DNA of 64,000 nucleotides from Escherichia phage vB_EcoM_RZ, in the sequence record MW598459. One strand, given 5' to 3'. Under the pieces are notes generated by a model, which saw only the letters and a program-made list of their open reading frames with translations, was not told the origin of the DNA and made no database searches. A program made the position numbers and the translations under genes. Below, piece after piece: positions 2,505 through 56,944 of the stretch (positions within the stretch are counted from its first letter, which is position 1; each line of letters begins with the position of its first letter).

Positions 2505-2633
2505 TTAACGATTGAAACCACGATTAATTGCACGTTCAACAATCTTCCGGGTCTGACGTTTGTCCCACCAGTACATAAAACCAATACCAAATGCAGACAA
2601 CATCCACAGACTAATCAATAGCACACCAATCAT
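2505..2633 (-). CDS. Small hydrophobic protein (42 aa), hypothetical
   Basis: Hand-translated ATG..TAA ORF MIGVLLISLWMLSAFGIGFMYWW...; below track size cutoff; one predicted TM helix. Confidence 0.3.
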   Translation of the reverse strand: MIGVLLISLWMLSAFGIGFMYWWDKRQTRKIVERAINRGFNR

Positions 2634-2660
2634 AATATTTTTCCCGCAGTTCAGAGTAAT

Positions 2661-2768
2661 TTAGTAAACGTTTCCACGTTTCCAGTTTTCTTCAGCCAAA
2701 TGCTTATTACGCTTTTCTAATAGCAGCAAACCAATTACTGTTCCAACAATCAGAAGTAATAATAACAT
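2661..2768 (-). CDS. Small hydrophobic protein (35 aa), hypothetical
   Basis: Hand-translated ORF MLLLLLIVGTVIGLLLLEKR...; ATG overlaps stop of upstream lipoprotein gene (TGATG). Confidence 0.3.
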   Translation of the reverse strand: MLLLLLIVGTVIGLLLLEKRNKHLAEENWKRGNVY

Positions 2769-3271
2769 CAGTTAATACCTTGGCGTGCTTTCTCTTTAGC
2801 TACACATTTATTAATATAGCTCAGACGGTTTTGAGCAGAACGCTGATACATATCGCGGTACTCATTAGCTTTTGGAGAACCCGTCTCTGCTGCCTGATAA
2901 GCTTCCGCGCGCATAATGTTTATCTGCATATTGATGTATGACATGCAGACCTGTGAAATCTGGTTAACAGTGTCAAGGTCATTTTGTCGCTTGGTTTCTG
3001 CTTCCAGTTTGGCAATGATTTCGTCATGCTTCGCAGCTTGTTCGCGTTTGTACTCAATTTCACGTTGAGCATATTTCGCGCAGTTGTTTCCACATTGATT
3101 GTTGTCGCGTTTGTAGATAAGTCCAGTACCACCTTTGAAATCAAAGGAACCATTATGCACCTGACGGTCTGCAGCAATTCGCGCTTTACCAATCTCATTG
3201 GCATTAACAACATCACCCTGGTAAGCACAACCAGATAGCAGCATAACAGCTGCGATAGCTAACTTTTTCAT
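2768..3271 (-). CDS. Putative lipoprotein (signal peptide with lipobox LLSGC), hypothetical
   Basis: Track ORF 2768..3298; internal ATG at 3271 gives MKKLAIAAVMLLSGC with GAGGA RBS upstream; Gln/Ala-rich coiled region. Confidence 0.5.
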   Translation of the reverse strand: MKKLAIAAVMLLSGCAYQGDVVNANEIGKARIAADRQVHNGSFDFKGGTGLIYKRDNNQCGNNCAKYAQREIEYKREQAAKHDEIIAKLEAETKRQNDLDTVNQISQVCMSYINMQINIMRAEAYQAAETGSPKANEYRDMYQRSAQNRLSYINKCVAKEKARQGIN

Positions 3272-3736: not shown

Positions 3737-6451
3737 TTAAAAATCAAACATATCAAAAAGAGATGCTTTTTTCTCGTAATCAACCTTAGCTGCTTCAGAG
3801 AACCCTGTTAATGGTTTGACAAAAGTCTTCTGGAACAGTGTGTTGTAGTCCATCCACTGCAAGACTTGGTCACGAATTTCAATCGGGAGTTCAATCCCTG
3901 ATGGCCATGCAATCACGGTTTCGCCAAACGGGTTACCAACTTTAAGAGGAAGCACATACACCTTTTCCCCTTCCATGATTTGTGGAACAGTCTTCAGACC
4001 TTTAGTTGCACGCATATATGCAAGCACACCTTTGATATGAGCCGGGCACTTAAATCCAGGGAAACCGCCTTCATTATATTTCTGGATGTTGTTAACCGAT
4101 GATACACCTGCGATGGTCATGTAGTTAAGCTCATTAAATTCCTTATTGAATTCCTTGAAGTATGTCTGCAGAGATTCTTCACCTTCTTGCAACATGCGGC
4201 GGATACATTCTTTCAGAGCTTTCTGACATGCCTTTGGAGTGCTCGACTTTTGAGTTTCCAGACCCATGATTTTCAGTTTCGGAACAGCATATCGTGTGCC
4301 TTCCATATCGTACACGTTCAACGCATAACGCTTCTTCGCCGTCCAGAACCCACCAACACCTTTAGAACCCAGCGGAGGACATGCAATCGCTTCACGGTCC
4401 ATAAACATAAGGTGCTGTTTGTTGTTCATGTATTCAGCCAGCTCACGGAAAGCTTTATCGATTGCCGGTTCCAGACGGTCTTTCGCGAACTTGTCCATGA
4501 AGTCAACCAGGTGGTTTGTATCACGGAATTTAGATTCACCACCAACCTTTTTAATCAGGTTATCGCACTGGATATAAATGGAGTCAGTGTCACCATAGAA
4601 TACGTAGGTTTCGCCGTTTGTCCCACAGACACTATCGAAGTATTCGTTAACTTTACGCTCAATCCACTGCAATGCAAGTTGTCCGAAAGATGTAATCGCG
4701 GTTGCATTTCGCAGGTCAAAGTAACGGAACCAGATATTACCCAGAGCGCCATAACAACTGTTGATAAGCAGTTTACGGTTAATCTGTGCGGTCATGCCTG
4801 CAACTTCTTCCATTTGTGCTTTGTACAACATACCATTCAGAACTGTTTGATTCAGTCCATGCAAGGTTGTTTTCATATTGTCATCAAAGTCATGACGATA
4901 ATCAACTTCAGGCTCGGTTGTACCAGTTCCTGGATTACGCAGAGCTTCCTTAATCAGTTCACCATTACGTTGAGCCGCAAGCATATAGCCTTTGTGTTCT
5001 TTACGCTGATTAAACACCTTGGTGACTTCTGTTGGAATAATACCTGCAACATCTTTAAAATACATCATACCATTTGGGGCACAACTAAATGTATCAGATG
5101 GACGGTCAGCAGTTCCTGCGATGTATTCATACATCTGGGCTGGAGCAAATGAACCGGCAATCGTTTCGGGACTGATGTTAATCTGTCGGATGATGCTCGG
5201 ATACAGAGATGTTAAGTCACAGCTCATTACATATTTGTATGCGTTCGGAATAGGTTCCTTAACAAATGCACCGGGGAACGATTGACGAACATGCGATTTG
5301 GTTTCCGGAATGACTTTGTTTTGAGTCTTCAGGCTGTTAAAGATAATCGCATCCCAAGTTTTGATTGGGCTGAATACAGACTGAATCTGCATCTTTGCAT
5401 AATAACCCATTGACTGACTCAGGTTAATAAACTGCCGCTTACGGTCAATCTGCACAACACGATAAACGTCGATGATGTTATAAGAAATATACCGTTGGTG
5501 ATTTGATTCACGCAGTTTAGAAATTGGGCCATCATATGGGAGTTTACCAACACCCAGTTCAGATTCCGCAACATAATCCAACGAATAAGACGGTTGATTT
5601 GTGAAGCTGAACTTTTTATACAGGTCCAGATAATCCAGAACAGAGATACCCAGAATCTGAATGATTTCTTGTTCTTCACCGAAACCGTTGTTAATGACCT
5701 TAACTTTTGTACGACGATGCGGACTCAGACGTTTTGCCGTAGCTTCACCAAATACATTTTTAAGACGGTTGTAGATATATGGAATATCAAACTTCTCGAT
5801 GTTCCAACCAGTTAACATAACCGGAGTTTTCTCGTTCCAGAATACCAAATACTGCTGGAGCATTTCTTCTTCTGAATCGAAAGCCATATAAACAATTTTT
5901 TCCAGGATTTCTTCAGGGACTTCATCGCCGCCATCTTCTTGCAGCTTAGCAGCAATATCAATAGACCATTGCTCCACAGTGGCGTATGGTGAGCTCAAAA
6001 GGTCAAAGACATAGAATTTATCGTCTACCGAATCATAGTGCGTCAGGGCATCAATAGGGTGACGTGCTTCAGACGGCTCAGGGAACCCATCGGGAGATGT
6101 CACCTCGATATCGAAGTTAGCAACACGGATTTTACTTGAATCATATTTGATTTCGTGTGGGTAACGGTCGGACAAGTATGCAAGTTTAAAGTCATCCATA
6201 CCCATAGCTTCGAGACCCATGTCATTCATTCGCTTCATCCACTGGGATGCATCACGCATGGAATCGAATTCTTTTTTCACACAACCTTTATTATAGATGT
6301 CTGTATACTTTGCAGCCTGGTCTTCACGGGCGTGCATAAACAAGCATGGAGCATAAGGGATTTCACGAACACGTTCATGACCGTTCTTGTCAATGTATCG
6401 TTCGAGCAGATTGTCACCGATTTGTTCGATAGTTAAATAAAATTCTTGCAT
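3737..6451 (-). CDS. 43: DNA polymerase gp43 (family B, 904 aa)
   Basis: Track ORF; FDIE exonuclease motif, DxxSLYPS, KxxxNSxYG and YGDTDS polymerase motifs; close to T-even/RB69 gp43 from memory. Confidence 0.97.
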   Translation of the reverse strand: MQEFYLTIEQIGDNLLERYIDKNGHERVREIPYAPCLFMHAREDQAAKYTDIYNKGCVKKEFDSMRDASQWMKRMNDMGLEAMGMDDFKLAYLSDRYPHEIKYDSSKIRVANFDIEVTSPDGFPEPSEARHPIDALTHYDSVDDKFYVFDLLSSPYATVEQWSIDIAAKLQEDGGDEVPEEILEKIVYMAFDSEEEMLQQYLVFWNEKTPVMLTGWNIEKFDIPYIYNRLKNVFGEATAKRLSPHRRTKVKVINNGFGEEQEIIQILGISVLDYLDLYKKFSFTNQPSYSLDYVAESELGVGKLPYDGPISKLRESNHQRYISYNIIDVYRVVQIDRKRQFINLSQSMGYYAKMQIQSVFSPIKTWDAIIFNSLKTQNKVIPETKSHVRQSFPGAFVKEPIPNAYKYVMSCDLTSLYPSIIRQINISPETIAGSFAPAQMYEYIAGTADRPSDTFSCAPNGMMYFKDVAGIIPTEVTKVFNQRKEHKGYMLAAQRNGELIKEALRNPGTGTTEPEVDYRHDFDDNMKTTLHGLNQTVLNGMLYKAQMEEVAGMTAQINRKLLINSCYGALGNIWFRYFDLRNATAITSFGQLALQWIERKVNEYFDSVCGTNGETYVFYGDTDSIYIQCDNLIKKVGGESKFRDTNHLVDFMDKFAKDRLEPAIDKAFRELAEYMNNKQHLMFMDREAIACPPLGSKGVGGFWTAKKRYALNVYDMEGTRYAVPKLKIMGLETQKSSTPKACQKALKECIRRMLQEGEESLQTYFKEFNKEFNELNYMTIAGVSSVNNIQKYNEGGFPGFKCPAHIKGVLAYMRATKGLKTVPQIMEGEKVYVLPLKVGNPFGETVIAWPSGIELPIEIRDQVLQWMDYNTLFQKTFVKPLTGFSEAAKVDYEKKASLFDMFDF

Positions 6452-27198: not shown

Positions 27199-27945
27199 AT
27201 GATTTTATCCGGAAGAACTGTTGATGAACTCAATGAAAAAGTCCAGGCTGCCTTGGCTGATAATTGGTATTTGTTTGGTTCTACTATGGTGTTGCCGAAT
27301 ACCCCTACAGATAGCAAAGAGCGTTTTTTCCAAACTATGTCCAGCTCGGAAACTCAGATACCGGGTCCGCTTGGTCCCAAAGGAGAACCGGGTGTACCCG
27401 GACCAAAAGGAGACCCAGGTGGGGATGGAAAATCTTCTTATCAGATATGGCTTGACTTGGGAAATACAGGAACTGTTGATGATTTTTTAACTGATACAGC
27501 AGGAAAGAGGGAAAAATCCGAGGTGTTTTGGAGTGGTATAAACGTTCTATTAACTAATGGTACGACTTCAAACATAATTAGTGTTTTAAAGGGGATTCCA
27601 CCGACTGCAGGGACTCTATCTCCGTTTTTTAGAACCACTGATGATAAGTTGTGGCCATATAACCAAGACAGAAGCCTAATGTTTAAACTCAACCTTATTG
27701 GTAATTTTGCAGGAGCCTCGCAAGCTCGAAGTATAACATTAAATTTCGTTGGAACCAACGGAAACACTTATATACAGAATCGTCCGGAAAATGCTACAGA
27801 TATTTTGTCTTTTACAACGTTCTTTAGCATTGATAAAGATGGGGCAATGGCAACCAATGGTACAGCTATAACTGTTATGCCAAATGGCGGCAACTTTACA
27901 ATAACCTCCGCATTGTTAGTAGCCGAACAAACAGTGACTTCATAA
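27199..27945 (+). CDS. Collagen-like repeat protein (248 aa), hypothetical; only plus-strand gene in a minus-strand region
   Basis: Track ORF; AAGGAG RBS 7 nt upstream of ATG; seven Gly-X-Y triplets; Asn/Thr/Gly-rich C-terminal half. Confidence 0.6.
   Translation: MILSGRTVDELNEKVQAALADNWYLFGSTMVLPNTPTDSKERFFQTMSSSETQIPGPLGPKGEPGVPGPKGDPGGDGKSSYQIWLDLGNTGTVDDFLTDTAGKREKSEVFWSGINVLLTNGTTSNIISVLKGIPPTAGTLSPFFRTTDDKLWPYNQDRSLMFKLNLIGNFAGASQARSITLNFVGTNGNTYIQNRPENATDILSFTTFFSIDKDGAMATNGTAITVMPNGGNFTITSALLVAEQTVTS
27364..27429 (+). repeat. Gly-X-Y collagen-like triplet run (GPLGPKGEPGVPGPKGDPGGDG)
   Basis: Seen directly in the translation of ORF 27199..27945. Confidence 0.8.
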
Positions 27946-46973: not shown

Positions 46974-47050
46974 TGGTCGGGGTGGTGGGATTCTAACCCA
47001 CAACCTACGGTTTAGAAGACCGTTGCTCTATACAATTGAGCTACACCCCG
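46974..47050 (-). tRNA. tRNA-Arg (anticodon UCU)
   Basis: Hand-folded cloverleaf: acceptor CGGGGTG/CACCCCG, D-arm GCTC..GAGC, anticodon stem ACGGT/ACCGT with loop CUUCUAA, T-arm GTGGG-TTAGAAT-CCCAC, 3' ACCA encoded. Confidence 0.75.
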
Positions 47051-47127
47051 GGTGGCCCCATCCAGATTTGAACTGGTAACCTTTCCCTTATGAGGGGACT
47101 GCTGCTAACCAATTGAGCTACAGGGCC
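47051..47127 (-). tRNA. tRNA with CAU anticodon (Met or Ile2)
   Basis: Hand-folded: acceptor GGCCCTG/TGGGGCC (two GU pairs), anticodon loop CUCAUAA, T-arm CCAG-TTCAAAT-CTGG; abuts tRNA-Arg. Confidence 0.65.
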
Positions 47128-49678: not shown

Positions 49679-50368
<690 letters not shown>

Positions 50369-50369
<1 letters not shown>

Positions 50370-51046
50370 TATATTACCTTATTAATTTTATCAAAAAGTT
50401 CTTCGAGTGTGCCATCGTTTTTAATAACAATGTCACTAGCTAGTGGTGGAAGTCCAGCTTCCGTAATGTGTGTATCAGTAGAATGATTTGCTTCATCGCG
50501 TTCTACAAAGATTATTGTAGCACCCATCGCCCGAAGCGAATCAAGTTCGTTCTTTTGGCGAACATCTGGGACAACGTAATATTTATATCCAGAATAGAGG
50601 TTGTCAAGATAGTCGCATGCAAAAGTTTTAATCCAAAACATGCTGTCGAACTCTGTACAAACAATATCAGTTCCAAGGGTCTGCATGAAACGTCTAACTG
50701 TCCAGGGCTCAACATTATTTAGTGTGTGAAATTCAATGATTTTACGAACCATATCTGGATTCGGAAGGTCAAGATTATATTGTTGTTTCAACCATTCAAG
50801 AGCATCAACCAGAAGAATATAAGCTTCGGTGTTGTTCATTATCAAGGTTTTTTCACGGTCATAACCTTGTCCATCAAAATTTTCCAGGGTCAAATTGTGT
50901 GGCAGGTCTTGACGAATCCACGCGTTATAAAGCGCTTCTTTAATCGGACCAGCAAGCTGCCACTTTGTTCCGTTTTGACTAATAACATAATCAGCAGTCG
51001 TATCTTTACCACTGCGTTTTTTACCCACAATCGCAATTAATTTCAT
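50369..51046 (-). CDS. 1: Deoxynucleoside monophosphate kinase gp1 (225 aa)
   Basis: Track ORF; P-loop GKKRSGKDTTAD; T4 gp1-like. Confidence 0.88.
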
Positions 51047-51642
51047 ACGTTTCTCATAGATGGATGCATTGACTTAGACCTGATTTCCTGTTGCATTGCC
51101 GCATTACTATCAATCTGTGGTCTACCTTCTATTATTATACCATCAATTTCTACAGCAAAAGACTTAAAGTTAAAAGTTGCTGTTGCAATGATAGCCGGGT
51201 CAGAATCTTCTTTATATGAATACTGAATCTCTGACAGGTCGGACGGCCATGCTCCATAGTAATGGATTGACATGACAATTTTGTCCTTGTTGTTATCTAA
51301 GATATGAAGCGTGACCGCTTCGGGACGACCCTTCGGATGCCATGCTTTTGATTCGTGTGTGATGTAGTTGTTGAGCGAGAGCATCCATTTATAGATATCA
51401 AGCCATGCTCTTAGGTCTTTGTCACACAGAAAGTTAACAATCAGCGGGTCGAATTCTATTGTACTACCAGGAAGACTGGAGCGATTTATACCTTGTGTTC
51501 CGCCCGGGACATCCGTCACAGGAATGTGAACCCCTGGGAGGGTAACGTCTTGAACGTTTAGTTTAAAGGTCTGTGTGAGGTTTGAATCGCTCACCTCTAA
51601 TATAAAGTTAGTCGTGTTAGTTTGATTATATAAACCTGACAT
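51043..51642 (-). CDS. 3: Tail completion / sheath stabilizer gp3-like
   Basis: Track ORF 51043..51819 trimmed to ATG at 51642 (MSGLYNQTNTT...); position between 1 and 2 as in T4. Confidence 0.6.
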   Translation of the reverse strand: MSGLYNQTNTTNFILEVSDSNLTQTFKLNVQDVTLPGVHIPVTDVPGGTQGINRSSLPGSTIEFDPLIVNFLCDKDLRAWLDIYKWMLSLNNYITHESKAWHPKGRPEAVTLHILDNNKDKIVMSIHYYGAWPSDLSEIQYSYKEDSDPAIIATATFNFKSFAVEIDGIIIEGRPQIDSNAAMQQEIRSKSMHPSMRNV

Positions 51643-51727
51643 AGTGCACCTTGTTTGCTTTAAAACAATCAGTGTTATAATGGTTCTAGACCTTTTGTCC
51701 TTACCAATAACACTGACCGATAATAGA

Positions 51728-52561
51728 TTATGAATTTCTCCATACTTTCTGTGAAGAAAATCTTTTGCCTTTTGAAAAAAACTGCTGAAGGGGGAGTAAT
51801 ACCACATTTGCCCAGTCACTGGGCTTGATTTCAGTAATAGTACCTTTTATATTGCCAGGTATATATGCTTTAATCATCTGGTCAGCCCCTTTAAATCCCT
51901 TCACCTTTGACCAATCAATCTTCAGATGAGTCTTGTTCGTAATCGTAGGAGTATTAGCATATTGCTTAAGAAGTTCCTCAAGGAACTCTTGACGTGCCTT
52001 CGGTGGAATATAGTGCAAGTTCAAACCATACATCAAATTGTGCTTACCTAGCCCAAGATAAATGATTAACGGATATTTGTCCCAGTACGGAAGAGTATCC
52101 TTATGCTTTGCATCATAGATATAAGCATAAATCTTACCCGGTTGAGGTTTAGCCGTTACGTGGCCACGAACTGATTTCTTAATTGTCTCAGCGAACCATC
52201 TGGCAGATTTGGTGTTGCTTGCTGCGCCTTCGTTAGCAATCTTATCTCTTATGCTCTTTCTAAAGCTATTCACCATTATCAGCTGGCGTTCAGCCTTCGT
52301 AAGTTTACCGGCGGGTTTCTTTTTGAGCTTGGATACTTTATAAGCAGTCTGAATTCTCGAATGATATCTTGACATGCTTTTGGTAAAGGTCGAATAGTTG
52401 ATTCCTTTCTCTTCAGCAAACTTCTTCGAGGTCATTCCCTTTTCTTTTGCTGTATAAAATTCAACCCCTATTTCAACCCATTGTTGTTCGGATTTACTGG
52501 GTTTTGGACCTGGTTTATCTACAGATTCATTGATAAATGTAAAAATACTCATCCTTTCCAT
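51728..52561 (-). CDS. 2: DNA end protector gp2-like (277 aa; alternative ATG at 52552)
   Basis: Track ORF; basic protein of T4 gp2 size in syntenic position. Confidence 0.7.
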
Positions 52562-53277
52562 CCTTCTATAAAATTAATCAAATCATTTTTTAAATAGTAT
52601 GGTAAGGTTTCTGTATAGCCATCGACCATAATATCTTTATTCAAATAACCTCTGTCTTTTATATATAATACAGATATTGCGGATTCTAACATTTTGGCTT
52701 GTGCACCCAGTTCAAATTCTCGATAATATAATTTGGAACTAATGCATTTGGAAAAATGATTTTGCTGCCACAATCTAAAATCATGATTGGAAGTTATACC
52801 ATACTTTAAAGCAGTTCCGCCCGGATATTCTATTTTATTAACATAAACAATAGCAGGTTTCTTTGCGTTAAATCCTTTGTGACAACAGTTTGGACATCCT
52901 TTGTTTTTTGTTGTAAAGTTGTTTAGATTTGTAATCCAACTGGTTGAACATGTAGAACACTTTATATAGGCTTTTGATTTTGTAAAAGTTGAATATGTGG
53001 TATCCCATTTATCAAAACTATACAATGGATTCACGGAATTTATTCTTGTGATTGCATCTAATTCAGATATTAATTTGCTTTCACCATAAGAACGTTTTAA
53101 ATTACAATTAGAACACCAACTTTTTGTTTTTAACTTATGCTTTAAAACAGTTGCTTTGTATTTGCATGTTTCTTCACATATAAAGCACTTTACAAATATC
53201 AAAGTTTTTGATTTATTAAAATCGCCTTGTCCCACTATCTCGCCATTTGTGATGTTAAAATCTGAACAATCGTACAT
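52549..53277 (-). CDS. Cys-rich hypothetical protein (242 aa), possible GIY-YIG-like nuclease with N-terminal zinc fingers
   Basis: Track ORF; CxxC pairs CFICEETC...CSNCN and CSTCS...CPNCCH; C-terminal IVYVNKIEY...KYGITSN...R...E; lies between genes 4 and 2. Confidence 0.4.
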
Positions 53278-53729
53278 TATAAACCCTTATATCCCATTTT
53301 TCTAAGCGCATCTTCAGTAATCAATCTAAACTGGATGCCCATTTTATCGGCTACGGCCTGCGCTGCTTTCCACTTATCCTTGTTAACGGCCCAAGTGTAC
53401 ATTTCGTTCATAAACCTCTTCTTACTTGCGGCGGTCGTATTGACTGGTTTTGCCGGCGGCCTTGTTTCCTTTTTGGGTTTGACCTCAAAGAAAAACTGTT
53501 GTCCATTTGAGAATTTCACCCACATATCCATGTAATATCTGCGTTTTTTACCATCCGCATTACTGAAATATGGAATAATTACGGTCTCAGAGCCCCATTG
53601 TATCACATCTGGATGATTATCTAACCAATTAAATACAAATTTTTCCCAATTTGACCTGTATGTGATTTTCTTCCAGTCTCCTTTGTACTTGGCAACGTTT
53701 TTTGGCTGCCACTTCCCGGAGTATGCCAT
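53277..53729 (-). CDS. 4: Head completion protein gp4 (150 aa)
   Basis: Track ORF; MAYSGKW.PKN..KY.GD.KKITYRSNWEKF matches T4 gp4 from memory. Confidence 0.92.
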   Translation of the reverse strand: MAYSGKWQPKNVAKYKGDWKKITYRSNWEKFVFNWLDNHPDVIQWGSETVIIPYFSNADGKKRRYYMDMWVKFSNGQQFFFEVKPKKETRPPAKPVNTTAASKKRFMNEMYTWAVNKDKWKAAQAVADKMGIQFRLITEDALRKMGYKGL

Positions 53730-53757: not shown

Positions 53758-53765
53758 TATTTATA
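53758..53765 (-). promoter_or_regulatory. Late promoter TATAAATA for gene 4
   Basis: Exact T4 late consensus on minus strand 28 nt upstream of gp4 ATG; part of palindrome AGCCTCC...GGAGGCT shared with gene 53 RBS. Confidence 0.55.
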
Positions 53766-54380: not shown

Positions 54381-56119
54381 TTAATATGTCAGATAATGTA
54401 AGTTGGTTCGTCGGTGTTGTCGAAGACCGAATGGACCCACTTCAACAAGGCCGAGTCCGTGTCCGTGTATGGGGTATGCATCCATATGAGAAATCGCAAG
54501 GGCCTGTAAAAGGTATCAGAACTGAAGACCTGCCATGGATGTCTGTACTGATGCCAACATCATCTGCATCAGTTTCTGGTATTCAAACTGCAATGACCGG
54601 TATGGTGCCAGGGACTCAAGTATATGGTCACTTTTTAGACAAGTGGAAACTCAACGGGCTTGTTATTGGTACGTATGGTTCAGCCTCAAGACAAAAAGCA
54701 AATCCCAACGAAGGCTTCTCTGACCCCACAGGACAATATCCACTTTATGTAGGTAATGATGCTGCTGCGCTCAACCGTGGCGGTGAGGTTGGTTATGATG
54801 CAACTTCGAACGTAATTCAGGATGCAAACACCGATGTAGGTATTAACCCTGATGGCCTTGATTTGAGTCAAGTTAAGCCAGATGATAATCCTAATTTCAC
54901 AATTGAAAATATGCTTCACCGTGATGAAGGTCTTCGTTTGAAAGTATATTGGGACACCGAAGGTTATCCTACTATAGGTATAGGACACTTAATTGCACCA
55001 CAACCTATTAGAGATATGAATCAGATAAACAAAATATTATCTAATCAAATAGGCCGTGAAGTTAAAGGTAACCCTGGTGCAATATCAATGGACGAGGCTT
55101 CTAAGTTATTCCAGGAAGACCTTAAAAAAGTTCAAAACGATATAGGCCGGCATAGTGTTGTAGGCCCGGTTTACAATAAAGAAAACCGTTCGAGACAAAT
55201 GGCTCTTGAAAACATGGCTTTCCAAATGGGATTGGGTGGGCTTGCTAAATTTAAAACGATGCTCGCTGCAATGTTAGCCGGAGATTATAAGAAAGCATTT
55301 GATGCCGCCCGTGATTCTGTATGGTTTAACCAAACTAAAGGCCGTGCATCAAGGGTATCAATGATTATCCTCACAGGTAATATGGAATCATATGGTATTA
55401 TGGCCCCTAAAGAAAGGTCATTTAAAGGGCGTTCATATAGGATGATTCAAACCTTTGCAGCCCCTGCAAATTCTGACCCAGCCGACCCGTGGACTCCAGA
55501 AGATACGAGGATTTTGTTTAAAGAGCCAGAATCCAGTTACAAGGGCGAATATCCTTATGTGCAGACAATGCAAACTGAAGGCGGGCATGTTCAGGAATTC
55601 GATAACACCCCTGGACAAGAACGTTATCGACTGATTCACCCGACCGGTTCCTATGAGGAAGTTGCACCAGATGGTCGTAAGACTTCGAAGACAGTGGCTG
55701 ATGGATATTATATGACCCAGGGCGATTCGAGTACTTACGTTGGCGGTAATAATAAAGTCAACGTTGGTGGTGATGAAACCTATTATAATATGGCTAACGT
55801 TCGTCGTCAGACCGATGGAAACGAAAGCATTCATATTCGTGGGAATGAAACCAAAACCATTGAAGGTGACGGTACAATTATTGTCAAAGGTAATGTAAGT
55901 ATTCTGGTCGAAGGTAATGCTGAAATAACTGTTAAAGGTGACGCAAAAACTCTTGTCGAAGGTAACCATGATTATACGGTAAATGGTAATGTCAAATGGT
56001 CCGTTAATGGAAACGTTGATATGACCGTGGCTGGCAATTGGTCCGAAACAATGTCAACAATGAGTTCTATTGCATCTGGTCAATATACTATTGATGGTTC
56101 GAGGATTGACATTGGCTAA
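54377..56119 (+). CDS. 5: Baseplate hub / tail lysozyme gp5 (580 aa)
   Basis: Track ORF; OB-fold N-terminus, lysozyme domain YWDTEGYPTIGIGHL, C-terminal beta-helix VxGxxxxx repeats. Confidence 0.95.
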   Translation: MINMSDNVSWFVGVVEDRMDPLQQGRVRVRVWGMHPYEKSQGPVKGIRTEDLPWMSVLMPTSSASVSGIQTAMTGMVPGTQVYGHFLDKWKLNGLVIGTYGSASRQKANPNEGFSDPTGQYPLYVGNDAAALNRGGEVGYDATSNVIQDANTDVGINPDGLDLSQVKPDDNPNFTIENMLHRDEGLRLKVYWDTEGYPTIGIGHLIAPQPIRDMNQINKILSNQIGREVKGNPGAISMDEASKLFQEDLKKVQNDIGRHSVVGPVYNKENRSRQMALENMAFQMGLGGLAKFKTMLAAMLAGDYKKAFDAARDSVWFNQTKGRASRVSMIILTGNMESYGIMAPKERSFKGRSYRMIQTFAAPANSDPADPWTPEDTRILFKEPESSYKGEYPYVQTMQTEGGHVQEFDNTPGQERYRLIHPTGSYEEVAPDGRKTSKTVADGYYMTQGDSSTYVGGNNKVNVGGDETYYNMANVRRQTDGNESIHIRGNETKTIEGDGTIIVKGNVSILVEGNAEITVKGDAKTLVEGNHDYTVNGNVKWSVNGNVDMTVAGNWSETMSTMSSIASGQYTIDGSRIDIG

Positions 56120-56129
56120 TATACTTCCA

Positions 56130-56651
56130 ATGAGCACTGACCTAGGAGACTCCATGGAAGGAGCCTCAATCGATGTTACGTTTACGGCTCAATTAGAAAC
56201 AAACGAAACATTAGTCGAAATAAATATAACTGAATATGAGGCCACCCCTGGCGTTAATGTTGAGGAGAATCATCTTTATGGTGTTTATGAATCCGTGTTC
56301 GGATTCGCAGATGATGCACTTAAATATCGGCTTAATGATGAATTCAAAACTGCCGGTTCATGGGAAGACCTTCCTACCGATAAGAGTACTCAATTGTATC
56401 TCTGGAGGGCTCCAGCGAGCCTCCAGAAGGTCTTTTCATACACGGTAACCCTAACCTATGACTTTCAAGAAGAGAGCTCTGGTGGAGACACAGGGAGCTC
56501 CGGCGGCAGTAATAGCCGTGCAGGTAATGAGACCGACCCACCTCCTGCTCCAGTAAGAAAAACAATGACAAAAGTTTACACAAAAACTATCGTTGGTAAC
56601 TGGTCAAGATGGGCAGATAAACTGCGTTCATACGTATACGCGAGGGATTAA
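56130..56651 (+). CDS. 5.1: gp5.1-like hypothetical protein
   Basis: Track ORF 56070..56651 trimmed to ATG at 56130; position between 5 and 5.4. Confidence 0.5.
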
Positions 56652-56944
56652 TGGCTGGATTAAGTTTTAATCAATGTGTTACAGCAGGCCACGAAGCATG
56701 GCCACCGACTGTAATTAATGCAACTCAAGGTAAAGTATTCACCGGGGGAATTCCGGTGTTAGTTGCCGGAGACCCTATTACCGAGCATACCGAAATTAAA
56801 AAACCATATGAAACTCACGGTGGAGTAACACAACCGCGCACATCAAAAGTATTTGTTACCGGTAAGAAAGCTGTTCAAATGGCAGACCCGATTTCATGTG
56901 GTGATACTGTGGCTCAAGCCTCATCAAAAGTCTTTATAAAATAG
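56651..56944 (+). CDS. 5.4: PAAR-repeat spike tip protein gp5.4 (97 aa)
   Basis: Track ORF; same length and position as T4 gp5.4; Cys/His pattern typical of PAAR proteins. Confidence 0.8.

Follow-up and report, generated by a model that had tools for sequence, protein, structure and literature searches.

What is a cysteine-rich open reading frame (ORF) doing between two essential structural genes of a T4-like phage? The DNA analyzed here is a 64,000-nucleotide window from Escherichia phage vB_EcoM_RZ (record MW598459), a T4-like Gaprivervirus. At 52549..53277 on the minus strand it carries an ORF of 242 amino acids plus stop, called from an ATG start, whose upstream neighbor is gene 4, encoding the head completion protein gp4 (53277..53729, minus strand), and whose downstream neighbor is gene 2, encoding the DNA end protector gp2 (51728..52552, minus strand). 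An initial annotation, made from the letters of the sequence, had proposed a mobile nuclease or else a new DNA-targeting protein. The first of these proposals is supported by the family to which the protein belongs and by the polymorphism of the junction, and we consider the ORF to be, most likely, a free-standing putative homing-endonuclease gene (HEG) of the T5orf172 class. The second did not stand, as the class has already been described (PMC10448857, PMC8096241, PMC8263062). The ORF is a new Gaprivervirus instance of the known T5orf172/CapR-zinc-finger homing endonucleases and not a new kind of DNA-targeting protein.

The ORF is a real gene, closely fitted to its neighbors by the overlapping start and stop codons that the initial annotation had described. 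The stop of gp4 and the start of the ORF share one nucleotide in TAATG, and the stop of the ORF and the start of gp2 overlap by four in ATGA. Over the surrounding 2.1 kb the window shares 98.6% identity with Escherichia phage DK-13 and 98.0% with Shigella phage fPSFA. The ORF protein is 100% identical in these two phages and is labeled ‘hypothetical protein’ in both, a label shared by the syntenic orthologue of Yersinia phage MHG19 (69% identity). A chance ORF is unlikely because such orthologues exist, because about 1097 homologous cluster representatives were found, and because the ratio of nonsynonymous to synonymous substitution (dN/dS) is low. Against the MHG19 orthologue this ratio is ~0.15, in the zinc half and the nuclease half alike, at a dS near saturation, and the ORF is under purifying selection. 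It is also compositionally foreign, with a GC content of 29.8% (23.5% at third codon positions, GC3) against 38-42% in the flanking genes and 39.5% in the window, and no second copy or paralogue of it was found elsewhere within the window.

The N-terminal part of the protein is made of two zinc-ribbon or treble-clef modules, which match the two CxxC...CxxC clusters first noticed in the sequence and are presumed to bind DNA. Module 1 spans residues ~12-68 (53074..53244, minus strand) and contains C31, C34, C55 and C58, and module 2 spans residues ~72-135 (52873..53064, minus strand) and contains C107, C110, C128 and C131. The cysteine pairs are 20 residues apart in module 1 and 17 in module 2, and the second pair is again CxxC. 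All eight cysteines are conserved in an alignment of 45 homologues, those of module 1 being kept in 24-42 of the 45 and C128 and C131 of module 2 being invariant. In an AlphaFold2 (AF2) model, module 1 is built of three strands and helices, with a predicted local distance difference test score (pLDDT) above 90.

The C-terminal domain (residues 136-242; 52552..52872, minus strand) resembles the T5orf172/GIY-YIG nucleases. The motifs that had suggested a GIY-YIG core are present, namely IVY145V, K158-Y-G160-I-T, R168 and E198, and they align with residues of the UPF0213 GIY-YIG proteins. Two of these proteins, 1ywl and 1zg2, are the two best PDB matches of the C-terminal profile, with the Tyr, the Gly-Thr, the Arg and the Glu in register. 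Y145, G160, R168, E198 and G220 do not vary among the 45 homologues, and K158 and E223 scarcely do. AF2 models the whole protein with a pLDDT of 92. A model of the domain by itself reaches 97 and has a beta-beta-alpha-beta-alpha topology, as in the GIY-YIG fold. A weak single-sequence match in the PDB to HhaI (E 0.14) was treated as chance because it was not reproduced by profile searches.

Membership in a family of nucleases emerges most clearly from the relatives of the protein. An exhaustive homologue search gave the ~1097 cluster representatives at E<=0.001, where a word-indexed search gave two proteins only, and most members of the family share only 24-37% identity with the window protein. 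When Pfam matches among the 45 aligned homologues were counted, the zinc models (PF21817, PF14311) were represented by CapR in 34 and DUF4379 in 34, and the nuclease-family models (PF10544, PF13455, PF01541), at E<=0.01, by MUG113 in 21, T5orf172 in 15 and GIY-YIG in 5. The MHG19 orthologue reaches CapR with 30.6 bits (cut-off 24.2; residues 77-131) and DUF4379 with 27.2 bits (cut-off 24.5), and scores 19.5 bits with T5orf172 (cut-off 20) and 15 bits with MUG113 (cut-off 22.3). The window protein itself is matched by PHROG 681 ‘endonuclease’ (E 2.5e-29) and is a direct homologue of T5 Orf141 (E 8e-17), which in turn matches CapR at 2e-24. Other family members carry the label ‘endonuclease’ in the T4-like phages RB49, Phi1, JSE and RB16. 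By the profile searches that had been suggested, the family thus belongs to the T5orf172/MUG113/GIY-YIG clan and its zinc fingers are treble clefs of the CapR/DUF4379 kind; the fold prediction is not a non-nuclease one. For the window protein, transitive homology argues for membership in the T5orf172/GIY-YIG superfamily. Neither the window protein nor the leading families matched by its homologues showed an HNH motif or PF01844 match, and a Pfam scan of the window protein gave no match to NUMOD or SegE. Matches to HypA and Elf1 in direct Pfam/NCBIfam scans of the protein were set aside as noise.

A homing gene should be present in some genomes and absent from their close relatives, and the gene 4 | gene 2 junction behaves in this way. 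In SP18, VR7, VR20, VR26 and many other Gapriverviruses, gene 4 runs straight into gene 2, the two overlapping and no ORF intervening. In PSD2001, P8 and P479, the junction is occupied by a 215-amino-acid Seg-like gene with GIY-YIG and NUMOD3 domains (in Escherichia phage PSD2001, 2348-2995 of locus L009, minus strand). Between genes 53 and 5, PSD2001 has another Seg-like gene (4098-4733 of locus L009, plus strand), and the window ORF gave neither a BLASTP alignment nor any hhalign similarity to the Seg-like genes of this phage. The T4-like phages thus do not all keep the ORF here: most close relatives have an empty site, and some have an unrelated nuclease gene in its place. Presence and absence at one precise site among close relatives is the polymorphism known from homing genes.

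The joints around the ORF retain a trace of the older arrangement. The last five codons of the ORF (…GWKG*), AGGATGGAAAGGATGA, form the downstream insertion joint at 52549..52564 on the minus strand, overlapping the ATG of gene 2; in the HEG-less phages SP18 and VR7, gene 4 ends with this same sequence. The BLAST block common to the window and SP18 ends at 52564. In MHG19 the same 18 nucleotides (AGGATGGAAAGGATAATG) stand on both flanks of the ORF. The old end of gene 4, 16-18 nucleotides in length, is thus retained or duplicated at the 3' end of the ORF. In PSD2001, the Seg-like gene is joined to a window-type allele of gene 4 via ...GGGTTTATAATGTAC, identical to the joint of the nuclease gene in the window.

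Divergence from the HEG-less relatives is concentrated in gene 4. In a comparison with SP18, genes 1, 3 and 2 show 94-100% nucleotide identity throughout, save one 100-bp bin (51700-51799, 80%), and identity is still 98.5% in the last bin before the 3' end of the ORF. It is 67-80% in the bins of gene 4, and from the gene 4-53 spacer onward it is 85-100% in nearly all bins, with two at 82% and 67%. By gene, gene 4 is 71-73% identical to its counterparts in SP18, VR7 and UPEC07, where genes 1, 3 and 2 are 95-99% identical and the 48-nucleotide gene 4-53 spacer is 100% identical. Alleles of gene 4 at least 89.6% identical to that of the window were found in five records only (DK-13, fPSFA, P8, P479 and PSD2001), and in all five a nuclease gene separates gene 4 from gene 2; the remaining database records reach at most 73.6% identity. 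Gene 4 of the window is apparently a divergent allele that was transferred together with the nuclease gene, and such linked exchange of the flanking gene is as in co-conversion. Taken together, the remnant at the junction, the foreign GC content and the divergence limited to gene 4 indicate acquisition of a cassette of ~1.2 kb, comprising a foreign gene 4 allele and the ORF, the pattern expected from double-strand-break repair with co-conversion. The MHG19 lineage hints that the two genes travel together there too, as the 3' part of gene 4 and the nuclease gene (locus L005, 2201-3227) have their best nucleotide match in DK-13/fPSFA, at 72%, and gene 2 of this phage has its best match, at ~78%, in Cronobacter and Enterobacter T4-like phages.

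We propose a model, inferred for DNA binding by the zinc modules, for cleavage, for the position of the target and for homing itself, where the enzyme acts during mixed infection. The gene would be expressed late, by co-transcription from a late-promoter-like motif 5' of gene 4, and its translation would be coupled to that of its neighbors through the TAATG and ATGA overlaps. The two tandem CapR/DUF4379-type treble-clef modules (residues ~12-135) would recognize the DNA site, and the T5orf172/GIY-YIG-superfamily domain (residues 136-242; catalytic-type Y145, R168 and E198) would cut near the bound site. The DNA cut would be that of a co-infecting Gaprivervirus without the gene, probably in the 3' part of its gene 4 or at the boundary with gene 2. 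Repair by recombination would then copy the nuclease gene along with the linked, cleavage-resistant allele of gene 4, presumably one without the target. We place the target on the gene 4 side solely because the exchanged tract is asymmetric and because the ORF separates the old gene 4 end from gene 2. As for expression, a motif search found the T4-type late-promoter motif TATAAATA upstream of gene 4, at 53758..53765 on the minus strand, and this motif probably drives a transcript of gene 4, the ORF and gene 2. No terminator-like site was found on the minus strand between gene 4 and gene 2, and promoter-like sites of the sigma-70 type and terminator-like sites occur in the region at chance level.

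Several observations weigh against a homing endonuclease of this class. Even at E<=10 the window protein reached none of the Pfam nuclease models, and its sole Pfam match is DUF4379 at residues 100-133, with 20.8 bits, below the cut-off of 24.5; CapR (PF21817) was without a match in the same scan. The E-values of the C-terminal profile against the PDB are weak, at 0.036 and 0.052. Foldseek, whether given the full model or the isolated domain, gave no significant match in the PDB (I-TevI appeared only at E 7.4), and hhalign of the C-terminal profile with the Seg-type GIY-YIG domains of PSD2001 gave nothing (probability 6%). The cleavage site is not readable from sequence. On the side of expression, late-promoter motifs occur across the whole window no more often than by chance, so that the position of the motif alone is suggestive. 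Finally, retention at one junction down to 35% identity, with a divergence like that of gp4 and gp2 in the case of MHG19, would also fit long vertical inheritance of a useful gene.

This retention at one junction merits attention of its own. The four nearest relatives of the ORF protein, that of MHG19 at 69% identity and three metagenomic proteins at 45, 39 and 35%, all sit in T4-like contigs between gp2 and a gp4 of the TnsA-like kind; those that follow in similarity are found in T5-like phages, upstream of the tape-measure gene. Since its four closest members are all found at gene 4 | gene 2, the lineage seems to keep to this site, as would be expected of a homing lineage. Within this junction clade, pairwise identity is 34-69% for the nuclease, 58-74% for gp4 and 57-72% for gp2. 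The clade is rare, occurring in 3 of ~1230 phage records with a gene 4 homologue, and a scan of IMG/VR found distant paralogues only (24-38% identity), none of them at this junction. No close HEG-less relatives of MHG19 or of the metagenomic phage of locus L014 were found, which limits the comparison of presence and absence to Gaprivervirus. It is tempting to speculate that these genes form a distinct, junction-faithful T5orf172 HEG clade that tracks gene 4 | gene 2 across deep divergence, moves as a two-gene cassette with the allele of the essential gene 4 as immunity cargo, and competes with the Seg-like gene for a landing pad in Gaprivervirus. We hold this extended reading tentatively, at somewhat short of even chances. 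If true, it would provide a natural setting for studying how homing genes succeed and compete with one another at a single site, and a way to map, for the first time, the target of a homing enzyme with zinc fingers and T5orf172.

How does the window gene compare with systems already known? Homing endonucleases that combine T5orf172 with CapR/DUF723/DUF4379-type zinc-finger repeats include Gp165, Gp174 and Gp130 of Vibrio phage ICP1 and Orf141 of T5 (Barth, Dunham & Seed 2023, PMC10448857; Netter et al. 2021, PMC8096241), and Orf141 has been linked to the ICP1 enzymes Gp165 and Gp130 (PMC8096241). The T5orf172 HEGs of ICP1, T5-like phages and others adjoin essential genes at boundaries of genetic exchange, and T4 itself is without T5orf172 genes (PMC10448857). 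The window protein shares with those of ICP1 and T5 an N-terminal array of four-Cys zinc repeats followed by a C-terminal T5orf172-like domain, and its gene likewise adjoins essential structural genes at a sequence-exchange boundary. Unlike them, it resides in a T4-like Gaprivervirus, and its clade is tied to gene 4 | gene 2. The zinc motif also differs slightly, being CxxC-(17-20)-CxxC in the window protein and CxxC-(24-26)-CxC in CapR, whose four cysteines are needed for DNA binding (PMC8096241). No mapped target is reported for any zinc-finger/T5orf172 homing enzyme in the class literature cited here. The sole T5orf172 protein with demonstrated nuclease activity is ICP1 Odn (Gp88), which cuts DNA in vitro and needs a conserved Glu, E180 (PMC8263062). 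The window domain keeps the catalytic-type Arg and Glu of Odn, and alignment through GIY-YIG suggests that E198 corresponds to E180 in role. However, Odn binds DNA through a RepA_N domain and is directed at the origin of a satellite, unlike the window protein with its zinc modules and homing-type distribution.

Other members of the superfamily are more distant. As with the T4 Seg proteins and I-TevI, the window ORF is a free-standing nuclease gene between conserved T-even genes, probably belongs to the same nuclease superfamily, and shows a linked exchange of its flank. Co-conversion of flanking markers is known for SegF and SegG, and a four-Cys zinc finger occurs in I-TevI too. The domains come in the opposite order, however, since GIY-YIG is N-terminal in Seg and I-TevI and the nuclease domain of the window protein is C-terminal, and the window protein is without a NUMOD3 or helix-turn-helix module. 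SLX1 and UPF0213, of the URI type of GIY-YIG, are cellular proteins of repair or of unknown function with 16-19% identity to the window protein; unlike it, they are without CapR-type zinc modules and are not mobile.

Could the gene have been put to a use other than homing? A domesticated HEG derivative, consisting of its zinc modules with or without the nuclease, might, to the benefit of the phage, repress or tune transcription as does the CapR of PLE (an element resembling phage-inducible chromosomal islands), or attack a competitor or satellite as does ICP1 Odn. Both co-options are documented for this domain family (PMC8096241, PMC8263062), and the purifying selection on the gene and the retention of its lineage at one junction in five divergent T4-like phages would suit either, although the invariant catalytic-type residues speak against a pure CapR-like repressor. 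Rarity within Gaprivervirus together with a swapped flanking gene is rather the classical footprint of homing; moreover, there was no match among the PADLOC defence models and none of a defence type, and a satellite target is not known. We regard domestication as improbable.

That every carrier has an intact ORF, with only two nucleotide differences between the window and DK-13, both synonymous, bears on a further alternative, in which the gene is an inactive HEG relic that hitch-hikes in the gene 4 - gene 2 operon. Phage homing-endonuclease genes often degenerate after fixation, as the homing cycle holds, and a relic might be expected to score under the Pfam thresholds, as the window protein does. 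Yet a relic would not be expected to show a dN/dS of ~0.15 in both domains, or to keep all eight zinc ligands along with the Tyr, the Arg and the Glu, and we judge this explanation to be decidedly unlikely. Least probable by our estimate, and only barely credible, is an accessory factor of the head-completion and DNA-end module, for example a nuclease aiding gp4 with its TnsA-like fold or aiding gp2, for although the position between gp4 and gp2 is constant in five lineages, translation would be coupled to both neighbors and the HK97 HNH-terminase offers a precedent (PMC10448857), the gene occurs in 3 of ~1230 phage records with a gene 4 homologue, its site can stand empty or be taken by an unrelated Seg-like nuclease gene, and its composition is foreign.

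With a T5orf172-type homing endonuclease as the preferred reading, the hypothetical protein of DK-13, fPSFA and MHG19 can be named accordingly, as putative. The nuclease gene also accounts for the sharp boundary at which a foreign-looking gene 4 stands amid near-identical neighbors. The gene adds an example to a described class and no new principle, and what goes beyond the class and is of some interest is that gene 4 comes as a linked allele, that a Seg-like gene can occupy the same allele and junction instead, and that the clade keeps to one junction. Natural gene-less alleles and a rival nuclease gene at one site are available here in easily grown coliphages.

The gene cluster around the junction is a hot spot for free-standing nuclease genes, as the neighboring junctions hold such genes in some relatives. 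A MobB-like HNH gene lies on the minus strand between genes 3 and 2 in VR7 (1529-2185 of locus L004), in fPSFA (1529-2188 of locus L001) and in UPEC07 (2529-3203 of locus L010), and fPSFA thus carries the MobB-like gene in addition to the T5orf172-type gene. UPEC07 also has an HNH-looking gene between genes 4 and 53, overlapping a longer gene 4 (4436-5143 of locus L010, minus strand); a reading of this gene as Seg-type GIY-YIG was set aside, as it looks HNH-like.

The names of gp4 and gp2 were taken from comparison with the annotated phages DK-13, fPSFA, SP18 and VR7. The gp4 protein matches the Pfam model Tn7_TnsA-like_N (E 1.9e-22), of the restriction-endonuclease-like fold, and the name ‘head completion nuclease’ used in some records fits this match. 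The program-made ORF list puts gene 3 (51043-51819, minus strand) and gene 2 (51728-52561, minus strand) too long at their 5' ends; the starts annotated in DK-13 and SP18 correspond to window positions 51642 for gene 3 and 52552 for gene 2.

Other differences from relatives were seen elsewhere in the window. Identity to SP18 falls to 48-70% at 50100-50300, amid 93-100%, near the gene 57A / 57B boundary. At 55936-56942 there is no BLAST match to SP18, where DK-13 matches the window; SP18 has in this place, between genes 5 and 6, an ORF of 2064 nucleotides (RB43ORF205w-like). The match to both SP18 and DK-13 is patchy at 45.8-48.9 kb, and the window has two tRNA genes only at 46974-47127 on the minus strand (Arg-TCT, Met-CAT), where SP18 has three (Arg, Asn, Met). 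At 27199-27945 on the plus strand, an ORF of 248 amino acids, opposite in strand to its neighbors, includes a tail needle knob domain of the Sf6 type (PF16532, E 2.6e-32).

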